Shown: positions 1 through 20,153, numbered from the stretch's first letter. The stretch: DNA of 22,178 nt from a virus (IMGVR_UViG_2917865565_000002:1-22178), one strand, 5' to 3'. Made by a program: numbers and translations. Notes: a model not told the origin generated them from the sequence alone.

Positions 1-2946
1 TTAGTGCTTCCCTTCTATTAAGTCTAACCTAGCTTTTATTCTTTCTATTTCTCTGCGCTGCCATGCTGCCTCGATATAGAATAAGAGATCAGGTCTGCCC
101 CCCCATCTAGATCCTGCTGGCGTTATTTCAACGCGCTCAATGATGTCTTCCATTACCATCACTAGATTATCATCCTCATCAACAATGATGCTCCCGTCAT
201 TATCAGTCAGCGGCATTTCCCTTTGGCCAGTAATGACGTCATCATATACTGCGGGATAATCGTCATAACAAAGAAAGGCATAGCGGCATGTTGTGCTTTC
301 TTCTTCCATGAGTCCGTGAGAAATAAGAACATCACGAAGTTGCTGCGCGATTACACCATGATGTATCCTCGCCCCTTCTTCCCCCTTTATAGCGACAGCG
401 TTCAGCCATTTATAAGCGATATACCTGACGTCACCCCAGGCATCCAGCAATGCTTCATCAGGAGAGACCGGCTCTGTCTTTAATGTTCCGTCACTGGTAA
501 CTACAGGGTTGGAGCCAAGATAAACTGTCGAGAACCTGTTTCCCGGACCACCAAGAGCATTTACATTATCAAGATAAGGTTTAACATCTCCGTTCTCAAA
601 AAGATGTTCGAGTGCGTTATATACCGCGCGACGTGGAGTACTGCTTCCGGAACCATGCAACGTTATCATTGCACCATCTGCTGAAGACGTTGTTTCACCG
701 CCGCTAACGATTAATCTCTGAGCGGTAACATCATCAGACGGTACTTTCTTCGCAATAATGGCGTAATTACCCTCAAGTTTGACTTCCGCGCGAACTTGTC
801 CTGATGTACCTGCATGGACAGTCAGTGACTGGACGGCAACATCATCTGTGAAATCAACGGGTACAGGGACCGTCCTCACGCCTGACGTCGACATAAAAGT
901 AGGAAGCGTTCTGTTAGGAGTGGCTCCGTAGACAAAATCCCTTGAAACAAATTCTTCCTGTTTAATTTTCACCCTGAAACAATACAAATCAGCCGGGTGA
1001 CCATCGTGAACATAAGGATATTTTCTGTTGTTATCCCCTATGCTCCATGGGTTTAGAAAGTCTTCCCCACCGAAAATGTAGTACAGCCAGTTGTCTTTGA
1101 TACAAACTGAACCAACACCAACCGCAGAGTTAACTATTCCGCCCTGATAAATCTGATCAGTAACATTAACCCACTCTACATTATCCAGACTCCACTCATT
1201 GACGTTAACTCTGGTCATAAATGTTCTTGGATAATTTCCTGCATAACGGTTATCAGGTTCTCCTCCTTCCCACTCACCAAATGCGCGCTCACTGCCAAAA
1301 ATAATCAGCTCATCGCCAACTTTGGCAAAAGGAAGGTTTGAGTGATGAACATTATTTGGGAAGCGAAGAGAATTCCATGATGCACCTAAATCAGAGCTTC
1401 TGTGTAATGAACTACCGGGTTGAGTACTTAATGTTCCCCTGGTCGTCAGATACAGAATGCCATCATAATATTTTACACATGGCTCAGATGCATTCGCCTC
1501 ATATTCTGCAGGTATGCGTCTGCGAACAAAGCTACCAGGAGAACCGAAAGCATCAGAGAAATAGAGTATCCCAAGCTCGCGTGGCCCAATATCACCATTA
1601 TGGTAGCCAACAGCAAAACTGTTATCGCTAATCGTCGCAAAACTGTGAATCTCAGTAACAGGAGTGCTTCCGTCAACAAAAGAAGGAATAGTTCCAAGAC
1701 GGGTTTTTCTCCATGGTGACGAGTGAAATGATGTACCAAAACTCCAGTATCTACCCTCGTTATTCTGATCCACATCCTGGGTATTTTGCGTCGTAACTGT
1801 AAAAGTATTTTTATCAATAACAGTAGTCACCGTCATATTCCCGGTAACACCTGTAACACCTGAGTTTGAGAAGTTGACAAAATCACCAGCAAATAATCCG
1901 TGATCAGTAATGCGAATATAAGCGACTTGCTGATTTGCTGCTTTCGTTATACCACCATAAACGCGAAGGCTGCGACTCATTGGGCGATCCCACAACTCTG
2001 CAACCTGCAGTTGATTTCCGCTCACGGTCCGCGTCTCAATTACAGCAAAAAGGCGATTTCTGACAACCCCCATACTCATGCAGTGATAGTTAACTGTGGG
2101 ATAGTTTTCATGTAAATCTGTAAGCCATTCCGGCGTTGTCCAGGTCTTCCCGTCATCTCCTGAGCGAACCCATGCAACATGGAGGTTATTTACACCATGG
2201 CGGTCTCCAGCCATAAAAGGCGCATAGATGACATTGTCATATACAAACGTCTTATCCTGCGTCCAGGCGTTGTACCACGGTGTATCTGTAATTTTAAACA
2301 ACTCTCCCTGGATAAAATCTTCAGAAGCATAAAAAAGAGGCTGACCCGGTATTCTCTCAAATAAAAAACGAGCATTTTTAAATCGACTGACATCCGGAAG
2401 AGTTGACACTTTAAAAGTAAGCCCTCGCCCATCTATCTTTTCACCACCTGTTGCAACAGAAAGTAATTCTGATAGAGCTGATGTGTCATCATGAACACCA
2501 TCACCAATAGCCCCCCAACCTCTTAGATCATAACTGTCTCTCCATCTTGCTATCTGAAGTTTTGGGTATTTATTCGCTCCATCTGGGTCTTCTAATTGCT
2601 GCCGTAGCTGATCAGGATCATACTTCAGCACATTAGGAAAATAGAACTGCTGTGCACCATACGCGTCATAAACAGCCATAGAATGGCCTTGCACAGTTAC
2701 GAATTTGGCAATCTTCCCGTTATATACTGGGAATCCTGCTGCGTTAATAACAATTGGCTGTGCTACCTGAACATGTTTACCATCTTCTCGTTCCAGATAT
2801 ACAGGGATCTGGTTTTCAGGATTTACAGGGTCAGTGTCAATTTTGCCGATATAAATTTTGCCATTGGCTACGGCTTTAAAAGAACGCGCCATAGTGAAGA
2901 GTTGCGAAGGCATACTCACTACAACATTGGCTGTAATGTCTGTCAT
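1..2946 (-). CDS. Tailspike protein: P22-type head-binding N-terminal domain fused to an endosialidase-like (endo-N-acetylneuraminidase) body with a C-terminal intramolecular-chaperone-like domain
   Basis: 981 aa. The first ~110 aa ([11 protein letters not shown]...KYDPDQ) closely resemble the P22 gp9 head-binding domain as I recall it. Two Asp-box motifs are visible ([17 protein letters not shown]). The central region resembles K1-phage endosialidase as I recall it (e.g. GWGAxGDGVxDDT, [20 protein letters not shown]). The C-terminal ~150 aa ([10 protein letters not shown]...[10 protein letters not shown]...) resembles the autocleaving chaperone domain of endosialidases and tail fibres. RBS GGAG lies upstream of the ATG at 2946. 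Confidence 0.85.
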
Positions 2947-3110
2947 TTAATTTTCTCCAGACGTAGCAATGCGGAACAAGATGCAACTTGCCCGGCATTG
3001 CATTAATGTCAGTTATGATTTGTTAACTATGAGATGAGTCTATGCAAAAAGATCTGTTGAATATTGCGTTCTATATATTTGGTTTTTGCACATTCCTGGT
3101 GTTTGCAAAG

Positions 3111-5108
3111 CTATTCTGACAACGAATCAGACTTCGCACCCTGCGTCAGGGCGTTAATTGCCTTTTGTGCCTGCTGCATGGCTTTCTCAAACGCTGTTGA
3201 TCCGCGTGGGGTGTTTGCCATTCGGAGCATTGCATTTCTGAATGGCTCGCTCTCATAGGCGCGAGTAAGAAGTCCGTAGCTTACTGCTGCGCCAGTTGTC
3301 GCCGGGTTCATTGCCGTCCCATATCCAATAATGAACGGGATGGTTTGCTGCCCTGTGGGTGTTGTTACTGCCGCTTTTGCTGCCTGCTGAGTGGACTGAA
3401 GGTAGTTTTTCAATCCTTTCAGATAAGCAGCGTCCTGACCCTTAAATGTGATGCCAGTCTGGTTTTGCAGGATGTTAAGCTGTCGAAGGAACTGGTCAGG
3501 GGAACCGCCTGATTTCTCCATTGCCTTGGCAATGATGCCATTGCGCATTTGCGCCCTGCCAACACGACCAACTGAGTTATACAGCGTCTTAATTTCCGAT
3601 TTGTTCTTGCTGAATAGCATGTTGTTGACAACTTCCGGCGTCAGGTCGCCTTTCATGAGAACATTCTTCAGCCTGGTATTCTTTAGTTTCGCCGCTTCGT
3701 CAGCGTAGACGGCATTGGCCTGCTGATATTTACGGAGAGTATCGTTGCCAAGATTCTGACCAATGGCACCATTGATATCGTCAGTCATAGCCTTGTAAAC
3801 GCGCTGAATGGCGGCATCGGAACGGTTTGGTAACACAGGTCGCTCACCCTTCACGTCCATTCTGAACTGGCTGCGCAGATCGCTTAATTGCTTCAAATCA
3901 AGATTAACCGGACCATCAGGGCCGGCATTGCGAACAAGCTCATCACGATATGACTGAAGTTTTGAAATCGTCTCGTTATCAGCGACCTTACCAAGTTTCT
4001 GCAGGTTAGATATCTCAGTATCAATCTGCTGAATTGCTCGTACAGGATGAATGTTTACTCCTGCCATAGCATTCTGAACCTGTTCAAGTCGATTGCCTGC
4101 GGCACGACGAATTCCTGATGTTTTCGCTTTGAGGCTGTCAATAACAACCGATGGCTCATACTCACCGAATTTATCAGCAAATCTCTGAACCAACTGGCTT
4201 CTCGCTTCCTGTTGCGTTGCTCTCATTCCGCTTGTGCCAGCCAGAGGGATATTTTCTGCTGTAGTCTGCGCCATTTTTCCGACGCGGGAAGTAGGTTGTA
4301 ACAGGTCCGTGGTGTGCAGAGGCACTCCTTCACGCTCTGCAAATCTGATAGCCTGCAGTGCTTCTGGCGCAATAGCACCTCGAACGCCACGATAAGCAGC
4401 ACCTAATCCACGTCCGGCAGCGTTAATAGCTCCGCCAGCCAGAACGCCAACGCCTAAGTCGGTGGCTAGTGCTTCCGCATCATCTTTCGCACTATTTGCA
4501 GCAAGTGATCCAACTGCGTTTTCTGCTAGAAGGCGAGTTGCCCCCTGAGCAATTCGACCAGCAAGTGTTGGTGCCTGTGTTGCCGCTCTCTCAACGCCGG
4601 CAGGAGTGAGGTACGGCAATGCTTCAGCAAATACCCTGCCCTCTGTCGTTTGTGGAGTCAGCGCACCTTGCTGAAGGCCAAAGTCCTGCTCTAATCCCTG
4701 CGTTGTTACTCGTGGCGCTGGTTGATATGTTCCATCACCAATGCCGAGTTTACCGCCAGCCCATGCCGCCGCGCTTGTTACAGCATCGGCAACTGATGCA
4801 GGTATGTTTGCCACGTTCACGCCAGCCTGCACCAGTCCGCGACCAGTCTCTTTTACTGCTTCGCCAAGATCAGACATAAATCCACTTTGCTGTGGTTGTT
4901 GCTGTGCTACTGGTTGCTGTGTCTCCACTGACTGCACAGATGGCAATGGATAGGCAGCATAGAAAGCTTGCTTAGCCTGCTCTGCATTTTCTCCGGCTTG
5001 CGGGGCCACGACTTCATTGAAGTATTGCTCCTGAGCCTGCGCTTTTTGTTCTGGTGCTAACGCCTGATACTGTGGAGAGGCGATAACATCTTTCCATGCT
5101 TTAGCCAT
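3111..5108 (-). CDS. Ejection (DNA-transfer) protein, P22 gp16-like
   Basis: 665 aa, last of three consecutive ejection-protein-sized ORFs directly upstream of the tailspike, as in P22/Sf6 gene order. Ala/Gln/Gly-rich low-complexity segments. Start overlaps the stop of the upstream gene by 1 nt. Confidence 0.75.
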   Translation of the reverse strand: MAKAWKDVIASPQYQALAPEQKAQAQEQYFNEVVAPQAGENAEQAKQAFYAAYPLPSVQSVETQQPVAQQQPQQSGFMSDLGEAVKETGRGLVQAGVNVANIPASVADAVTSAAAWAGGKLGIGDGTYQPAPRVTTQGLEQDFGLQQGALTPQTTEGRVFAEALPYLTPAGVERAATQAPTLAGRIAQGATRLLAENAVGSLAANSAKDDAEALATDLGVGVLAGGAINAAGRGLGAAYRGVRGAIAPEALQAIRFAEREGVPLHTTDLLQPTSRVGKMAQTTAENIPLAGTSGMRATQQEARSQLVQRFADKFGEYEPSVVIDSLKAKTSGIRRAAGNRLEQVQNAMAGVNIHPVRAIQQIDTEISNLQKLGKVADNETISKLQSYRDELVRNAGPDGPVNLDLKQLSDLRSQFRMDVKGERPVLPNRSDAAIQRVYKAMTDDINGAIGQNLGNDTLRKYQQANAVYADEAAKLKNTRLKNVLMKGDLTPEVVNNMLFSKNKSEIKTLYNSVGRVGRAQMRNGIIAKAMEKSGGSPDQFLRQLNILQNQTGITFKGQDAAYLKGLKNYLQSTQQAAKAAVTTPTGQQTIPFIIGYGTAMNPATTGAAVSYGLLTRAYESEPFRNAMLRMANTPRGSTAFEKAMQQAQKAINALTQGAKSDSLSE

Positions 5109-7110: not shown

Positions 7111-7566
7111 CTATCTCCCGTGATTCAGGAAGTCGATTAGTTCTTCGCGTGTGGCGCTGTAAAACGTCACGTCATCCACGCCTTTGAAGTATTTCTTGAT
7201 GGTTCCTACACGCTTAAGGCCAATCATTGCGCAGTACATCTGACCGTGGCGGAATTTGCGCGCAGCGAACGATGTGACGCACTGAACGGCGGTGTTAGTC
7301 AGAATGTATCGCCAGAACGCCAGCCCTATTTCCTTGCTGAATCCGCGAATCTCTGGCAGGTACATGGCGTGGCAATCAAAGGTCAGCGGCTGAATCTCCT
7401 GATAGTAAACAATTCCGCCGAACTGCCCGTGCACGTTCACCTCAAAGTAACGGCATTCAGGTTTGTAGTCGTATCCATCACCGTTGTTGCTTCCGGCAAT
7501 AATGTCAGGGTGATTTCCGACTGCTTCTATCAGGTCGATGTTTCGCGTTGGTTTGAATGTAATCAT
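7111..7566 (-). CDS. gp14-like protein (P22 gene 14 position; Sf6 gp10 equivalent)
   Basis: 151 aa ORF between the tail needle and gp7-like genes. ATG overlaps the upstream stop (ATGA). Assignment is by synteny only. Confidence 0.5.
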   Translation of the reverse strand: MITFKPTRNIDLIEAVGNHPDIIAGSNNGDGYDYKPECRYFEVNVHGQFGGIVYYQEIQPLTFDCHAMYLPEIRGFSKEIGLAFWRYILTNTAVQCVTSFAARKFRHGQMYCAMIGLKRVGTIKKYFKGVDDVTFYSATREELIDFLNHGR

Positions 7567-8267
7567 CAGTCAATCAGCCCATGTAATCTAAGTGCTGTTT
7601 CAAGCGCCAGAATACGCTGCCGCGACTGCTGCAAACCTGTAGCGAGAGCCGCGACTTCGGATTGTGTGTACGTAGTGCCGACCGTGTATGACTGGTTAGC
7701 GTTGAATGAGCCAAGAAGAGGTGTACCTGTGGCTGCAGTCCATCCGGTATTTCTTGCTCCAACAACCTGAATTCCATCAACTGAATATGATGTTTTTACA
7801 TCCAGCGGTGACGCAAGAGACTGCGATTCGGTTACGGTTTTCGATACGTAATCACTCTTAATGTCAGATACATCGCTTTCTACGTCATCCAGTCTTTGGT
7901 CAACAGTGACCAGATGCGCCTGAATATCGATAACCTCATCCAGCAAGTAATCAACATCGCTACGCAGTACGACTATCTTCCCTTCGGCAGTTGTTAACCT
8001 GACCTCAAGGAGATTTATCGCTTTTGTGTTTGCGGTGATTCTTGAATCGTGATCTGCCAGTTCGACGTCCTGTTCATCGTTTTTCACCTGAGCATCGTAA
8101 GCGCCCTGACCAGCCTGATTTGCCTTCCCGGCAATTGCGCCGACATCAGCCCCCTGATTAATGACATACAGCAGGTAAGACTGGCTGAATATATTGCGTG
8201 GAAGGATTGATGTATCGAGTCGTGTAGCCTGAATTGTTACCGGCTCATTGAGATTCGAATCAGCCAT
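7566..8267 (-). CDS. Tail needle protein, P22 gp26-like
   Basis: 233 aa. N-terminus [73 protein letters not shown] is near-identical to P22 gp26 as I recall it. Coiled-coil heptads follow. Confidence 0.85.
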
Positions 8268-9685
8268 TACTCAATCCTTATCTGGCAACCAGACAGAGTG
8301 ACAGGTGACTTCGTGATAACGCGCAATTTGAAGCCGACATTTTTCCTGATGCGCCCTACTCGCTTCCACAAAACACGCTTGTCGTAAACGAACGGTTCAT
8401 TCTGCTCAATCATCTGCTCACGGCCGTAATTGATGCCGTCAGTGGTTGCAGAGAGAAAAAGGCGGTCAGCATACTGCGCAACTCCAGTTGACGATTCAAC
8501 TTCAAGGTCGAAAACTCTGGCGTTATCCGCTTTGAACAACGGAGTAAACAGCAGGTGTTCCTGCTGCTTGTCGTACTGGCTGCTGATATCGAACTGCAAT
8601 TTCCCGGTCACGGATTCCAGCTTATCGCCGCACGTTATCTGATTGCCTTCGTAAATGAAGTCGATAGCGCGGTACACATCGTCATACAAGCCAGTTTTCA
8701 ACACACACCATTGCGGACCATTGGCGCTTGAAGATGCGTCGTACACGAGAACATGGCGCGGAAGGTGGATAATCAGCAACTCATGAGCATCAAATCGCAG
8801 CGATTCCATCACACCATCAGCCAGTTCATCAGCAGTGTAGGAGCGGAGGATTTTCTCAATGCTCGCGCTGGCGATTGGTGACACCTGACCGGATCCGATG
8901 ATGTACACAGACGGCGCACCTGTTGCAGGATTGCTGATGAACGCATAAGAATCAGCAAACGGCGTTTTGCAGTAGGTTCCGGCTATTCCTTTTTGCACCA
9001 TCAGCGATGGCTGTGCGACATACAAAGCGGCACCAACAGTGGTTGCGCCAGTCAGGGAGAAATATTCAATCGTCGATGAACCAAAGCAGACGATGAAGTC
9101 TCGCCATGTTGCGATGCCGATGATTCCGTCAGGCTGAGACTCGGCACGATATTGTGCACTGTAGCGGTCAGGATGCGATTCATCTTCAAGGTCAGTGATA
9201 AACCATGAATCAGTACCGTCTTTTGACCACGCATAACGCCCACGTAAGCGCGTAATATCGCGGACTGAGCCTAACTCATACTGCGTGAATCCGCTGTCTG
9301 TAGGCCAGTTTGAGACGGTTTTAACCGTACCATCATAGCGATACTCGACCAGTTGACCATTAACGCCTACCGCCTGAGATGTTCGACCATGCGCCATTGA
9401 TACGCGACCACTTCCGGCAACATCACCGACCTCGCTTTCTCCTTTGTACAGCTTGCCACCACATACGCGATAAACAGCATTCTGCGCCATGTTGTACTCG
9501 ACTCCGCGAGATGCACCGTTCACATCAGAACGTTTGGCAATGCCCGGGAATGAGCGAAGATATCCGCTGCTGTTAAGGATTTCTTTGGGTGTAGCCAACA
9601 TATTCACTGGCAGATAGTCGATATAGTCGGCGTTTCGAAAGTCTTTGCCGACACCTTTCATAAGCGGAAGTTGCTGAATCGGCAT
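8267..9685 (-). CDS. Tail accessory/hub protein, P22 gp10-like
   Basis: 472 aa, the same length as P22 gp10. Lies between gp4-like and the tail needle. Translationally coupled to neighbours. Confidence 0.8.
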
Positions 9686-9694
9686 TTATTCACC

Positions 9695-10156
9695 TCACGT
9701 ACTCGAATCATCTTTCTCGATGTAAAACCGATTCCACGTAAACGCGCTTTTGTTACCACTACCGCGAGGCATGTCATTTCGTCGCTCAAGTGGTGGTATT
9801 TTGGTTAAAGCGATACAGATTGTCTGATATGCACTGTCAGCAGCGGTCAGGAGAGCATCCGACGGCTGAATGACGTTATCCATGCACACCTGCACAGCGA
9901 GCTTCAAAGCGACGCCATCATTTGCCCATGCAGGGATACCTGAATCATCGTCAGGTAACGGCATGATGCCGTTTTCTGTATCAGCAAACTGATATCCAAG
10001 CTCGATACCTTTCGCCTGCCATGCTGCCATCATGTCTTCGAGGTCATTAATGGCATCTTCAATTGCCTGAGGGTCGGCATCTGTCAACGTGGCATTGGAA
10101 TACAGCCCGGCTTTTCGTAAAGCCTTAAGAACGAGATCACCCTTCGTTTTCGCCAT
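9695..10156 (-). CDS. Head-to-tail adaptor, P22 gp4-like
   Basis: 153 aa. N-terminus MAKTKGDLVLKALRKAGLYSNATLTDADPQAIEDAINDLEDMMAAWQ resembles P22 gp4. Position downstream of coat. Confidence 0.8.
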   Translation of the reverse strand: MAKTKGDLVLKALRKAGLYSNATLTDADPQAIEDAINDLEDMMAAWQAKGIELGYQFADTENGIMPLPDDDSGIPAWANDGVALKLAVQVCMDNVIQPSDALLTAADSAYQTICIALTKIPPLERRNDMPRGSGNKSAFTWNRFYIEKDDSST

Positions 10157-12622: not shown

Positions 12623-14821
12623 TTACTGCTGTGGTTGTTGCTGAGTTGATTTTTGCAGGATGCTGCTGATGTCCATGCGCTGCGCATGACCCTGTGCCTG
12701 ACTTTTCAGGACAAGCTCTGCATCAGCACGGGCATTGTCTCCTTGCTGTTGCTGGAACTGCCCGAGCAGTTTCAGAGCCTCGCGGATATCAGATTTCTGC
12801 TGGCTATCGGCAGATGCGAGGATTTTCACAACGTTTGCCGCTGCAACCTGAGCATCAGTCTGTGCCTGGAATGCTTTAACCTGAATGGCTGCCTGTTCGT
12901 TCTGCGCTTTCTGCAATTCAGCCTGACCAGCAAGAAGCTGACCTTGCGCAGCAACCATAGCCGGATCTGGCTGACTGGCCTGTTGTTGTTTCGCCTGCTC
13001 AACCATTTGCTGCTCTTCTGGCGTTCTCGGCTTGATAACTCCAGACAGAAGCAACTGATTGCGGTTGTATTCTTTCAGGTCTTCCATCCCTTCGCCGTCC
13101 ATATTGTCGAGAATCATCGACGATACAAGGTCGTGCTTCGGCGTTCCTGGTGGGATAAGTGCCAGCATGGAAAGTAACGACTTAACCGTTGCATCACGGC
13201 GAGTAGCGAACGACTGACCGACATCGACAGTCACTTCATAGTTGCCCTGCGAAAGGTCATTAAGCGCGATAACCTGCCCTGTCTGACGGTCAACCACTTC
13301 ACCAGTCATCAGCGCCACGTCATCGCTGCCGTCCTCATTAACGATACGCATCGGCGTATCACTGCCATAGACCTCACGCGCCATAGAAAGCCACACAACG
13401 CCAGCGCGACGCATGGATTTAGCCATGTTGTCCATGTAGATATAGGACTGCGTATCCATCCGGTTAAAGATGCTATCAACGGTATCGGTGGCGACGTTGC
13501 TCGGCATGTTCTCAAGCTGCGACGCACCTGTAATTTTCTGAATAGCCGTTCCTGTGTACTGCAATAGCCCGGCAAGAGCTGGAGGCATTTGTGTCGGAGG
13601 CGTATAACTGCTGACCTGAGCCTGCGCAGTAATATCTCCGTTTTTGTTTTTCAGACTGACCATCGGCAGGAACGCCGGGCGATTTTTGTTGCGCTCCGCC
13701 CAATGAGTGGCAAGAGGACCAGGAATCATGTCAACATCAACTACAGGAATGCCATCACCGCCAGCCTGAGTAGCGTTATCTGCAATCATGGAAACCATCA
13801 GGTTCTCAAGACGCTGCGCATCCATCGCTTTTGCTGCGTGGCCTTCGATTCGCTCCTGATTATCAACAAATGAGCGACGCCCATATACCGGGATGAGAGG
13901 AATATGTTCGCCCGGAATACGCTTCGGTTCTTCCAGCCATTCAGCGCCAGACAGAAGGCCGCAATAAACGCGGCGTTTCTTCACCGTTCGCTCACCAATC
14001 AGTTCGAATGCGCCATCGGTTAGCTCGTCGACAACATCTTTGATTTGCTCTTCATCATAGATTGCCGTTTCTCCGCTAATAGGGTTACGCCATGCTGTGA
14101 GCTTCACTTTCTCTATGCGAACTTCGTAGTAGCGTCCAACATAGATGGCATCAGGCGTTGACCAGTCATACTGAGTACCAGCGTCATCACGAGAAAGACT
14201 TGCCGCGATGGAATCAGGGTATTCAGCCTCGAACGCTTTAGGCGTCATGGAGAACATTTCCATAGCCCACATAGCATCAGAGCGGTCATATTGCTTGCTG
14301 TCCTGATCGAAGAAGACGCATGTCGCTGGGTCGTAAACAGGAAGAAGGCTTATACGGCGTTGCTCGTTACTCGGATCCATTTCATCTTCGTAATCGGCAC
14401 ACATGCGGAAACAACCGAATCCGCCCGTTACAGCATCATCAAATGCGTTATCACACGCTTCGCCACCGGATGTTTCCTGATAGTCAGCGCGGAATTTGCC
14501 GTTCATCTTTTCGGCCAACGCTTCCGATGCCTTATCGTCCTTCGGCCTGAATTTAACGCTGATGCGATTCTGTCGATACTCGCCAATGATGCGATCACAT
14601 TCACGGGCAATCTTATTCAGTTCAAAGCGCGGGTAATGCTCAAACCTGCCCTCATCAAATGAGTAACCAGCGTTTGTGCTGCCTTCCCACTGTGCGCCGG
14701 ACACCCGTACGAAACGTTGAGCCTCAATAATCTGCTCACGCATATCCTGCGTTGCTGACCAGGCATTATCAAAGTTGCACAGCACCTTGCGATGCCAGTC
14801 AGTCATCTTTTTTTCTGCCAT
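12623..14821 (-). CDS. Portal protein, P22 gp1-like
   Basis: 732 aa. Internal segments (RRVYCGLLSG, IPGEHIPLIPVYG, TPEEQQMVEQAKQQQASQPDPAMVAAQGQLLAGQAELQKAQNEQ…) match my recollection of the P22 portal, including the Gln/Ala-rich C-terminal barrel helix. Confidence 0.9.
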   Translation of the reverse strand: MAEKKMTDWHRKVLCNFDNAWSATQDMREQIIEAQRFVRVSGAQWEGSTNAGYSFDEGRFEHYPRFELNKIARECDRIIGEYRQNRISVKFRPKDDKASEALAEKMNGKFRADYQETSGGEACDNAFDDAVTGGFGCFRMCADYEDEMDPSNEQRRISLLPVYDPATCVFFDQDSKQYDRSDAMWAMEMFSMTPKAFEAEYPDSIAASLSRDDAGTQYDWSTPDAIYVGRYYEVRIEKVKLTAWRNPISGETAIYDEEQIKDVVDELTDGAFELIGERTVKKRRVYCGLLSGAEWLEEPKRIPGEHIPLIPVYGRRSFVDNQERIEGHAAKAMDAQRLENLMVSMIADNATQAGGDGIPVVDVDMIPGPLATHWAERNKNRPAFLPMVSLKNKNGDITAQAQVSSYTPPTQMPPALAGLLQYTGTAIQKITGASQLENMPSNVATDTVDSIFNRMDTQSYIYMDNMAKSMRRAGVVWLSMAREVYGSDTPMRIVNEDGSDDVALMTGEVVDRQTGQVIALNDLSQGNYEVTVDVGQSFATRRDATVKSLLSMLALIPPGTPKHDLVSSMILDNMDGEGMEDLKEYNRNQLLLSGVIKPRTPEEQQMVEQAKQQQASQPDPAMVAAQGQLLAGQAELQKAQNEQAAIQVKAFQAQTDAQVAAANVVKILASADSQQKSDIREALKLLGQFQQQQGDNARADAELVLKSQAQGHAQRMDISSILQKSTQQQPQQ

Positions 14822-17209: not shown

Positions 17210-17752
17210 TTAATTGGTGAGTCCGGGGATTACGGTTTGCCCGTGCTGTTCAAGGCGTTCAATTCTCGCCATTAACTGAGGATTCTTAATTTTTCCCCAG
17301 CGATTGAGCAGGCGACCTGACATGCTGGCAACATCCTTCTCTTTCATGTACTCCAGCATTACGGCATTTCTCTCTTCTTCAAATTGACGATGACCAACCT
17401 GAAGCATGGCGTACATCCAGTTAAATGCGTTGATGTAAGCAATTTTGATACGCATTGCTTCTTTTTTGGTGTAGGACATAACCAAAAGCATCAACCCATC
17501 CTTGCGGAGACGGTAGAATTTTTGCGGCTTACCATTCTGTAACTCATTGTTTTTATAGCAAAGCTCAAAGTTGAGCTTTGTATCAAACTCAGGAGGGCAA
17601 GCTTCTATGGTTCGTTCAATGTCACGAACCACGTTCTTAGGCAGCTTTCCAAATGCTTTTGCCACCATAAAAGAATCTGTAACCGGATCGTTGTTTGCCA
17701 CAAAAATCAGATCTCGGAAATCGATGCCGTTAACGATAGTTGGATAATTCAT
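17210..17752 (-). CDS. rha: Phage regulatory protein, Rha family
   Basis: 180 aa. The typical Rha N-terminal pattern is visible: AKAFGKLPKNVVRDIERTIE … NF … KFYRLRKDGLMLLVMSYTKKEAMRIKIAYINAFNWM. RBS AGGTGA upstream. Confidence 0.7.
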   Translation of the reverse strand: MNYPTIVNGIDFRDLIFVANNDPVTDSFMVAKAFGKLPKNVVRDIERTIEACPPEFDTKLNFELCYKNNELQNGKPQKFYRLRKDGLMLLVMSYTKKEAMRIKIAYINAFNWMYAMLQVGHRQFEEERNAVMLEYMKEKDVASMSGRLLNRWGKIKNPQLMARIERLEQHGQTVIPGLTN

Positions 17753-18393: not shown

Positions 18394-18866
18394 ACCTCAA
18401 TCTCTCTGACCGTTCCGCCAGCTTCTTTGAATTTTGCAATCAGGCTGTCAGCCTTATGCTCGAACTGACCATAACCAGCGCCCGGCAGTGAAGCCCAGAT
18501 ATTGCTGCAACGGTCGATTGCCTGACGGATATCACCGCGATCAATCATCGGTAAAGCGCCACGCTCCTTAATCTGCTGCAGTGCAACAGCATCCTGGCTT
18601 TTCGGAGAGAAGTCTTTCAGGCCAAGCTGCTTGCGATAGGCATCCCACCAACGGGAAAGAAGCTGGTAACGTCCGGCGGCTGTTGATTTGAGTTTTGGGT
18701 TTAGCGTGACAAGTTTGCGAGGGTGATCAGAGTAATCAGTGAATAGCTCTCCGCCAACAATGACGTCATAACCATGATTTCTGGTTTTCTGTCGTCCGTT
18801 ATCAGTTCCCTCTGACCACGCCAGCATATCGAGGAACGCCTTACGTTGATTATTGATTTCCACCAT
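18390..18866 (-). CDS. R: Endolysin, lambda R-type lytic transglycosylase
   Basis: 158 aa. [51 protein letters not shown]… is near-identical to lambda R as I recall it, including the catalytic Glu in AWSEGTD. Confidence 0.9.
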
Positions 18867-19173
18867 CTTCTACTCCGGCTTTTTTAGCAGCGAAGCGTTT
18901 GATAAGCGAACCAATCGAGTCAGTACCGATGTAGCCGATGAACACGCTCGTTATATAAGCGAGATTGCTACTTAGTCCGGCGAAGTCGAGAAGGTCACGA
19001 ATGAACCAGGCGATAATGGCGCACATCGTTGCGTCGATTACTGTTTTTGTAAACGCACCGCCATTATATCTGCCGCGAAGGTACGCCATTGCAAACGCAA
19101 GGATTGCCCCGATGCCTTGTTCCTTTGCCGCGAGAATGGCGGCTAACAGGTCATGTTTTTCTGGCATCTTCAT
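18850..19173 (-). CDS. S: Holin, lambda S-type with dual-start motif
   Basis: 107 aa. [39 protein letters not shown]… is essentially lambda S. Met1-Lys2-Met3 gives the S107/S105 antiholin/holin dual start. Upstream leader (CCCCUUAUUGGGGGUAAGAC-AUG) resembles the lambda sdi stem-loop region. Confidence 0.9.
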
Positions 19174-19415: not shown

Positions 19416-19491
19416 TGGTGCTGGTTAACGGACTTGAACCGCTACCCATTCGCTTACAAGGCGACTGCTCTACCATTGGAGCTAAACCAGC
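19416..19491 (-). tRNA. tRNA, anticodon UGU (Thr) by manual folding
   Basis: Minus strand GCTGGTTTAGCTCCAATGGTAGAGCAGTCGCCTTGTAAGCGAATGGGTAGCGGTTCAAGTCCGTTAACCAGCACCA. 7-bp acceptor stem, D-arm GCTC/GAGC, anticodon loop CUUGUAA, T-arm AGCGG-TTCAAGT-CCGTT, encoded CCA. One mismatch at the base of the anticodon stem. Confidence 0.65.
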
Positions 19492-19496
19492 ATATT

Positions 19497-19571
19497 TGGC
19501 GGGACAGCGTGGACTCGAACCACGATAAGAAGGTTAACAGCCTTCCGTAATAACCTTTATACGACTGACCC
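19497..19571 (-). tRNA. tRNA-like gene, anticodon GUU (Asn) by manual folding; possibly degenerate
   Basis: Minus strand GGGTCAGTCGTATAAAGGTTATTACGGAAGGCTGTTAACCTTCTTATCGTGGTTCGAGTCCACGCTGTCCCGCCA. Good T-arm (CGTGG-TTCGAGT-CCACG) and anticodon arm (GAAGG-CUGUUAA-CCUUC), encoded CCA. One U-U mismatch in the acceptor stem and a 3-bp D-stem. Sits 5 nt from the other tRNA. Confidence 0.55.
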
Positions 19572-19627: not shown

Positions 19628-19657
19628 ATTATGGCTAAATGGCTAATTGCATGTCAA
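19628..19657 (-). promoter_or_regulatory. Candidate sigma70 late promoter (pR'-like) overlapping the 3' end of the Q-like gene
   Basis: Minus strand has TTGACA (19657..19652), an 18-bp spacer, then CATAAT (19633..19628). The Q stop codon lies in the spacer. This position, just downstream of Q, is where lambdoid late promoters sit. Confidence 0.4.
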
Positions 19658-20153
19658 GACTTTTAACAGCAATATGCTTAACTTTCTCAACACGTTTACG
19701 CATTTTGAAAGCATTTTGCATTGGCTGGTATAAAACAAATAATGACGCTTTCAGGATATCGTCAATTTCGTTTCTACAGGTTGCCAGTGAAGGTTTTCTC
19801 CATCCCTCACCACCACGTCCACACATCTTGCGTGGCTTTGCAGTCGCGTGATAGTAGGATGCAATTGCTCGCTTAGATGAACCATGAGCGTAGTAGCTGA
19901 GGAGGATGCCAAAGGCTTTCTTGTCAATGCACATGACGGAATCGACGACCTGAGAAATCAACATTCCATCATCATCATTACACATTGGCCTTGTCATAAC
20001 TCTTCCCGGCTCTACGCTCTCCATGAACTTCGCTATTACGCTGCTCATGCGCTTTTCCAGACGACCTGAATAAACCCATGCGCCCCACAGTTCAAGCCAG
20101 CCATTCAGCCACTCGTGCTGTTCTTTGGTGAGGTTTAGTTCTCTTATGCCCAT
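19635..20153 (-). CDS. Putative late-gene antiterminator Q (non-lambda family)
   Basis: 172 aa ORF between ninI and the lysis cassette, which is the position of Q in lambdoid phages. Not similar to lambda Q by my recollection; the size fits the phage 21/82-type Q proteins. Several Cys/His residues present. Assigned by synteny. Confidence 0.6.

Follow-up and report, generated by a model that had tools for sequence, protein, structure and literature searches.

The 22,178-nt stretch of prophage DNA analysed here (the window) opens with a gene for a tailspike, and the question that this locus raises is which host surface such a spike would be made for and whether the phage encoding it would still put it to use. 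The first-pass annotation had placed a chimeric tailspike at positions 1–2946, and these coordinates proved exact: the gene is a single minus-strand ORF whose reading frame is uninterrupted from the ATG at 2946–2944 to the TAA at 3–1. The last base of this stop codon is position 1 of the window. A scan of positions 1–3400 for promoters and terminators gave a number of sites that was not above that of shuffled controls, and the spacer 5′ of the tailspike gene held no site of either kind. The features discussed below are collected in Table 1.

Table 1. Features of the tailspike gene and its surroundings, in window coordinates except where the source contig is named
Feature	Position	Strand	Basis
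Tailspike gene, siaK1-type; precursor 981 aa, 109.3 kDa	1..2946	-	ORF list and translation
Peptidase_S74 C-terminal intramolecular chaperone, aa 818-981, 18.7 kDa, predicted to be released	4..495	-	PF13884, PDB
Ser818 codon, predicted autocleavage nucleophile; scissile bond Thr817/Ser818	493..495	-	aligns with endoNF S911
End_tail_spike PF12219, stalk, aa 663-817, includes R804	496..960	-	Pfam E 7e-78, entire model
End_beta_propel PF12217, catalytic six-bladed beta-propeller, aa 213-662	961..2310	-	Pfam E 9.5e-233
Active-site R554 (endoNF R647)	1285-1287	-	alignment
Asp-box SSDLGASW, aa 517-524	1375-1398	-	sequence
Active-site R503 (endoNF R596)	1438-1440	-	alignment
Active-site E488 (endoNF E581)	1483-1485	-	alignment
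Active-site R456 (endoNF R549)	1579-1581	-	alignment
End_beta_barrel PF12195, inserted in propeller, aa 324-406	1729..1977	-	Pfam E 1.2e-46
Asp-box SGDDGKTW, aa 262-269	2140-2163	-	sequence
Active-site H250 (endoNF H350)	2197-2199	-	alignment
End_N_terminal PF12218, N-terminal extension, aa 146-212	2311..2511	-	Pfam E 8.6e-37
Linker / start of endosialidase module, aa 114-145, 56% identical to K1F gp17	2512..2607	-	alignment
Head_binding PF09008, tail-docking, P22 gp9 / Sf6 gp14 type, aa 1-113	2608..2946	-	Pfam E 4.5e-64
Divergent patch in head-binding domain, ~aa 43-78	2695..2850	-	mismatch positions
Spacer, 164 bp, gp16-type gene to tailspike gene, no immI genes	2947..3110	.	ORF list
Shine-Dalgarno GGAG, 9 nt 5′ of ATG	2955..2958	-	sequence reading
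gp26 needle	7566-8267	-	PHROG tail needle
gp10, tail hub	8267-9685	-	Pfam P22_Tail-4 / Phage_stabilise matches
gp4, tail hub	9695-10156	-	Pfam P22_Tail-4 / Phage_stabilise matches
neuO, polysialic-acid O-acetyltransferase, outside the window	source contig L010 13100-13806		98.6% nt identity to CUS-3 neuO

Domains, active site and autocleavage residues

Six Pfam domains were found in the tailspike, each scoring far better than its curated cut-off, and chance would not come near to producing this three-part architecture. The first ~110 residues had been called P22 gp9-like, and this is borne out: positions 1–113 of the PF09008 model are matched by tailspike residues 1–113, which are 75% identical to the same residues of P22 gp9. 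Past the head-binding domain, the likeness to P22 gp9 is a weak gapped extension only. The best PDB match for this domain is Sf6 gp14 (7SG7, E 4e-60); P22 gp9 structures (1LKT, 2VKY, 2XC1) are matched as well, and E values for the Sf6 and P22 head-binding structures range from 1e-45 to 4e-60.

The body had been likened to the endosialidases of K1 phages from about residue 120 onward. The likeness stands, on the Pfam domains, on endoNF structures matched at E = 0, on an identity to endoNF of 70% for the propeller (56% for stalk and C-terminal domain) and on the retention of active-site residues; the start does not, since K1-phage endosialidases align from aa 114 in tblastn searches. The PF12217 propeller model is matched end to end (1–367). 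The PDB search paired residues 145–817 with the K1F endosialidase catalytic fragments 1V0E and 3GVL and mutants, paired residues 698–979 with the endoNF stalk and chaperone fragment 3GW6 (E 1.3e-93), and also matched the phi92 endosialidase 4HIZ to the tailspike. Solved structures cover every module of the protein at 56–75% identity. Judged by these matches, the body is a GH58-type endosialidase consisting of beta-propeller, inserted beta-barrel and stalk. A non-sialidase fold, which the first-pass annotation had named as the counter-reading, is excluded by the Pfam and PDB results, because solved endosialidase structures are among the matches. The pectate-lyase-type beta-helix was rejected as a candidate for the body, Pfam and PDB giving it no support.

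Functional residues were mapped by aligning the tailspike to K1F gp17, K1E gp47, CUS-3 SiaK1, 720R6 and ZX5. Residues of endoNF that are catalytic or intolerant of substitution include H350, R549, E581, R596 and R647, and further Q330, D331, H527, S528, K585 and N699 (PMC12632334). The equivalents of the first five are listed in Table 1, those of the other six are Q230, D231, H434, S435, K492 and N606, and all of the endoNF functional residues examined are kept in the tailspike. Both of the strings that had been quoted as sialidase Asp-box motifs are likewise present.

The C-terminus had been described as chaperone-like, ~150 aa long and beginning near residue 830. An S74 domain is indeed there (the PF13884 match spans aa 818–878, E 1.6e-10), but its boundary falls at 817/818, which makes the C-terminal domain 164 aa long. 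The conserved cleavage serine that the annotation had suggested looking for is S818. Its dyad partner K823, five residues further on, aligns with endoNF K916, and the stalk residue R804 with endoNF R897; in endoNF, the S911/K916 Ser-Lys dyad and the helper R897 drive autocleavage (PMC8326128). The last residue of the crystallised mature endoNF chains is the Thr equivalent to T817 (PDB). From the 109.3-kDa precursor, mass calculation predicts a 90.6-kDa mature subunit and an 18.7-kDa fragment; the CUS-3 spike protein is given as 109 kDa in a review (PMC5380687).

Compared with CUS-3, 720R6 and ZX5, the tailspike has five private substitutions: K312Q, S416R, T522A, P928L and V950G. At position 950, where the tailspike has Gly, K1F and K1E also have Val. 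Some of these substitutions could be errors, since the assembly is an Ion Torrent one.

Relatives of the spike and exchange of its modules

The alignment of the tailspike gene with CUS-3 siaK1 (from E. coli RS218; CP000711, ABQ88383) is free of gaps and shows 97.6% nucleotide and 97.8% amino acid identity, and the two proteins have their length of 981 aa and their domain order in common. The CUS-3 GenBank record tags SiaK1 with 'endo-alpha-sialidase activity, evidence IDA, PMID 16689790' (Stummeyer et al. 2006). The spike gene of vB_EcoP-720R6 is 97.8% identical at the nucleotide level. The enzyme body (window 1–2425) was found in 194 of the 5,426 complete E. coli genomes, at ≥99% identity in 138 of them, and lineages with a 99% identical body include APEC O18 and F11; roughly 3% of complete E. 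coli genomes carry near-identical copies. With CUS-3 SiaK1 equal in length and so similar in sequence, and with the body common in E. coli, the architecture is already known, as the first-pass annotation had held in calling it CUS-3-type and probably not new; on sequence, the tailspike is one of an ordinary, well-characterised kind. Among GTDB species-representative genomes scanned with the tailspike, a set to which the source assembly does not belong, only relatives of the head-binding domain were detected (in E. coli, Pantoea, Arsenophonus and Yokenella).

Comparison with CUS-3 also brings out differences. The body, stalk and chaperone domain of SiaK1 are 98–99% identical to those of the window tailspike, and neuO lies directly downstream in both, but the head-binding domains are merely 90% identical. 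In CUS-3 the immI genes ant/mnt separate the spike from the gp16 gene, whereas in the window prophage the spike abuts the gp16 gene; CUS-3 has int next to neuO, where the window prophage has an int remnant only; and the host of CUS-3 is E. coli ST95, that of the window prophage a cryptic clade II strain. The CUS-3 gene order, int - neuO - siaK1 - ant/mnt - gp16 gene, is not found in the window prophage, which by its sequence is a mosaic relative of CUS-3 and not CUS-3 itself.

EndoNF, the K1F gp17 protein (1V0E, 3GVL, 3GW6; CAZy GH58), shares the catalytic fold and residues, the stalk and the S74 Ser-Lys dyad with the window tailspike, but it has a T7-type N-terminal adaptor instead of a P22 head-binding domain, and a loop in its C-terminal domain is shorter. 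The CUS-3 lineage carries a seven-residue insert, FVDGSTP, that is lacking from K1F gp17 and from K1E. It also has a Met at the position of endoNF Q853, which we take to be part of the stalk sialic-acid site.

The enzyme body, stalk and chaperone domain recur in the tail fibre (ORF7) of ZX5 (vB_EcoP_ZX5, MW722083), a temperate, epsilon15-like Uetakevirus, with 99.0% nucleotide identity over window 33–2425 (aa 175–971). The ZX5 protein, however, is 1,039 aa long, differs in its last ~15 residues, and carries another adaptor at its N-terminus, epsilon15-like in our reading but termed a phage T7-like tail fibre domain by the ZX5 authors (PMC9782041). One and the same enzyme cassette therefore sits on at least three adaptors (P22 type, ZX5 type and K1F/T7 type), the version in K1F being a more distant one. 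The tailspikes of P22 (gp9), Sf6 (gp14), HK620 and Sf101 have head-binding domains homologous to that of the window tailspike (identity for Sf101 is 85% over aa 1–113/124), and their genes occupy the same place, after the ejection-protein genes, but the receptor-binding bodies of these spikes are O-antigen endoglycosidases folded as a right-handed beta-helix, which have no relationship to the sialidase propeller, and an S74 domain is absent.

Sf6-like phages (Sf6, Sf101, Huey, Kapi1 and IME10) align starting at window position 2608, which is the boundary between codons 113 and 114. The receptor-binding-domain swapping proposed earlier for this gene agrees well with such a layout, a P22-type docking domain being joined at this boundary to an enzyme body that is found on other adaptors; the tailspike would have originated by module exchange at ~aa 113/114. 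This module-swap reading has been published for CUS-3, HK620, Sf6, P22 and K1F (PMC5380687).

Mismatches are unevenly spread along the gene. Of its 72 nucleotide differences from CUS-3, 46 lie within 2601–2946 (346 nt) and 26 in the remaining 2,600 nt, and the patch at 2695–2850 holds most of the differences both from CUS-3 and from 720R6. This clustering suggests that the docking domain has a mosaic history of its own.

Genomic setting and source strain

The genes upstream of the spike, encoded on its strand, include a full P22-type virion module, identified with Pfam and PHROG: gp16, gp20, gp7 (ejection), gp14, gp26, gp10, gp4, coat, scaffold, portal, TerL and a Sf6-type TerS. Beyond it come a Rha-type regulator, Rz, endolysin, holin and two tRNA genes, and on the late-regulation side Q, a phosphoesterase, NinG, NinF, NinE and NinB. 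With this module in place, the hub proteins for docking are encoded beside the spike. In the ORF list the spike follows the gp16 gene with no immI genes (ant, mnt, arc) intervening, unlike in CUS-3 and 720R6; Sf6 has the same immI-less layout as the window prophage. When the spacer was aligned, Sf6 and 683R2 ran contiguously across it, whereas CUS-3 and 720R6 broke at 2961. The combination of immI-less layout and endosialidase spike is absent from all 5,426 complete E. coli genomes.

Contig PDIJ01000010.1 (GCA_004745205.1) encodes the exact tailspike protein, and the window reproduces its reverse complement without a difference. An identical spike is present in a second sample. The source is Escherichia cryptic clade II strain E2562, a marine-sediment isolate, so that the host foreseen by the first-pass annotation ('E. 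coli K1 or similar') has to be corrected in its E. coli part. In line with this source, identity to each complete E. coli genome is only ~92.5% in the chromosomal flank, yegL to dgcE, against 96–99% between the phage DNA and its E. coli copies, a gap that would imply recent transfer of the phage across species.

The neuO gene lies 160 bp past the tailspike stop. Its 5′ heptanucleotide repeats number eight, with the consequence that the ATG frame ends after 38 codons. Expression of neuO is 'on' solely at repeat numbers that are multiples of three (PMC3046976); eight is not, and the gene is therefore phase off as assembled. Of a CUS-3-type int, the last 84 nt are present, followed by host DNA beside ibsB/ibsA.

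Searching the protein collection with NeuS of UTI89 revealed no K1-type cluster; the best match reached 82% identity, and its contig comes from another assembly. Nothing usable was found in the literature on clade II / E. whittamii capsules, and the paper on K1 evolution does not mention the cryptic clades. That spike and host match in E2562 is something we infer.

Function of the spike and what it may say about its host

The tailspike is very probably the receptor-destroying spike of a P22-like (Lederbergvirus, CUS-3-type) temperate phage, and no sequence evidence was found against reading it as an endosialidase tailspike. By analogy with endoNF and CUS-3 SiaK1, the C-terminal domain would assist three chains in folding, and after the stalk has formed the Ser818/Lys823 dyad, assisted by Arg804, would cut between Thr817 and Ser818. 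This predicted autoproteolytic release after trimer folding would free the 18.7-kDa fragment and leave the 90.6-kDa mature subunit. The trimer would then dock through aa 1–113 on the gp4/gp10 hub, encoded a few kb upstream. The 98–99% identity of the body to CUS-3 SiaK1 points to endo-cleavage of alpha-2,8-polysialic acid by the homotrimer: on the virion, the spike would bind and endo-cleave this polymer (the K1 capsule), allowing the phage to reach the outer membrane. Binding and cleaving the K1 capsule in this way, the spike would be the host-range determinant, as had been proposed.

A possible objection is that the prophage is defective or rearranged and the gene a relic that only looks intact, unused for infectious particles and uninformative about the present host surface. 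We regard this as possible but unlikely. The reduction of int to its last 84 nt at the prophage/host junction, with no int on this side, could be taken as a sign of decay, but P22 prophages normally lack int at their tailspike end, and the int evidence covers that end of the prophage only. The same holds for neuO, which is out of frame as assembled, although the off state is one of its normal phase states (PMC3046976). Spike genes split by IS elements in prophage phiv205-1 and in E. coli MS1657 indicate that decay of this gene does occur, and the host here is an environmental sediment isolate. Against this, the virion, lysis and late-regulation ORFs of the 22-kb window are all full length with strong family matches, and the spike ORF carries no frameshift even though homopolymer sequencing is error-prone.

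A far less probable reading, to which we give very little credence, accepts an active spike but shifts its specificity from plain K1 to K92-type alternating alpha-2,8/2,9 polysialic acid, to O-acetylated polysialic acid or to a capsule specific to clade II. The host is not E. coli, and three of the private substitutions (K312Q, S416R, T522A) fall in the propeller/barrel region, but the active-site residues are all unchanged, and spikes from E. coli lineages match the body at 99% identity. The Met at endoNF Q853 and the insert missing from K1F and K1E could be cited in its favour too; CUS-3 has both as well, so that the window copy is not set apart by them, and the near-identical CUS-3 SiaK1 is annotated with endosialidase activity from direct assay.

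As an endosialidase tailspike of the CUS-3 type, the protein would set the host range of the prophage and mark it as specific for polysialic acid. The architecture, enzymology and structure of such spikes, and the module-swap reading, have been in the literature since 2005–2010. The value added here is ecological only, in that this copy comes from a sediment-derived Escherichia of cryptic clade II; that host, the Sf6-like immI-less layout and the patch of mosaic sequence in the docking domain are mildly interesting as context. The cryptic clade II copy is a cheap pointer to the question whether K1-type capsules occur in such strains. We see an evenly balanced case for the wider proposal that a CUS-3-type K1 phage with neuO, lysogenic in a sediment clade II strain, signals K1-type capsules and dedicated temperate phages in non-coli Escherichia outside animals. 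If this is true, non-coli Escherichia would be a reservoir for a virulence-linked capsule/phage pair.

Source contig and chromosomal junction

The whole window, taken as its reverse complement, matches contig PDIJ01000010.1 exactly; this contig belongs to Escherichia cryptic clade II strain E2562, recovered from Hong Kong intertidal sediment and read by Ion Torrent. Across all complete E. coli genomes, the host genes adjoining the prophage (yegL to dgcE) show only ~92.5% identity, against 96-99% for the phage DNA compared with E. coli prophages.

Past the window, this contig keeps just the final 84 nt of a CUS-3-type integrase gene, and from ~14143 the sequence is E. coli-like chromosome adjoining ibsB/ibsA-yegL. 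Positions 14130-14284 of the contig also match the phage 720R6 record near ybhB/bio, at 96.9% identity. On the same side of ibsB, E. coli TUM3755 has nleA/nleG effector genes of a kind characteristic of lambdoid prophages, and this side may therefore be a recurrent insertion site.

Between the junction and the spike gene lies neuO, the polysialic-acid O-acetyltransferase gene, with 98.6% nucleotide identity to that of CUS-3. It has eight heptanucleotide repeats, three of them AAAACTC variants; with this number the ATG is not in frame, and neuO is therefore phase-off as assembled.

Coordinates of features in the window and in related sequences
Feature	Sequence	Positions	Strand	Remark
V950G (aa 950)	window	94-99	-	chaperone domain
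P928L (aa 928)	window	160-165	-	chaperone domain
Endosialidase body	window	33-2425	-	
164-bp spacer	window	2947-3110		between gp16 gene and spike gene
Rha-family regulator	window	17210-17752	-	C-terminal ORF11CD3 (antirepressor-like) domain
Holin gene	window	18850-19173		on one side of the tRNA pair
tRNA-Thr(TGT), tRNA-Asn(GTT)	window	19416-19571	-	two tRNA genes
Q antiterminator gene	window	19635-20153		on the other side of the tRNA pair
neuO	PDIJ01000010.1	13100-13806		outside window, at a distance of 160 bp from window position 1
Integrase remnant and junction	PDIJ01000010.1	14046-14284		outside window
IS-split spike gene	phage phiv205-1	6310-8754		

The spacer in place of immI

In CUS-3, in 720R6 and in all the closest E. 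coli prophages, the gp16 (ejection-protein) gene is separated from the spike gene by immI (ant, mnt, arc), whereas here only a short spacer is present. Window segment 2962-3039 runs on without a break in Sf6 and 683R2 but has no counterpart in the CUS-3 record, the 720R6 record or those of the closest E. coli prophages. Because immI is missing, this part of the phage may have no antirepressor-type gene other than that of the Rha-family regulator, which is placed between the small terminase gene and the lysis cassette.

The spike gene and its relatives

The chaperone domain of the spike has two private substitutions, V950G and P928L. The first falls within the WGVRP motif, at a position occupied by Val in CUS-3, 720R6 and ZX5 as well as in K1F and K1E. 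These substitutions could be either real or Ion Torrent/assembly errors.

Elsewhere, inactivated copies of the CUS-3-type spike exist, since in some E. coli prophages the gene is split by transposase insertion: it is interrupted in phage phiv205-1 and likewise in E. coli MS1657, by an IS66-family or other transposase element inserted close to where the head-binding domain meets the body.

The endosialidase body shares 99.0% DNA identity with the tail fibre of vB_EcoP_ZX5, a temperate Uetakevirus, a closer match than that of CUS-3 over the whole gene. This level of sequence identity suggests that two different lineages of temperate podoviruses have exchanged the cassette very recently.
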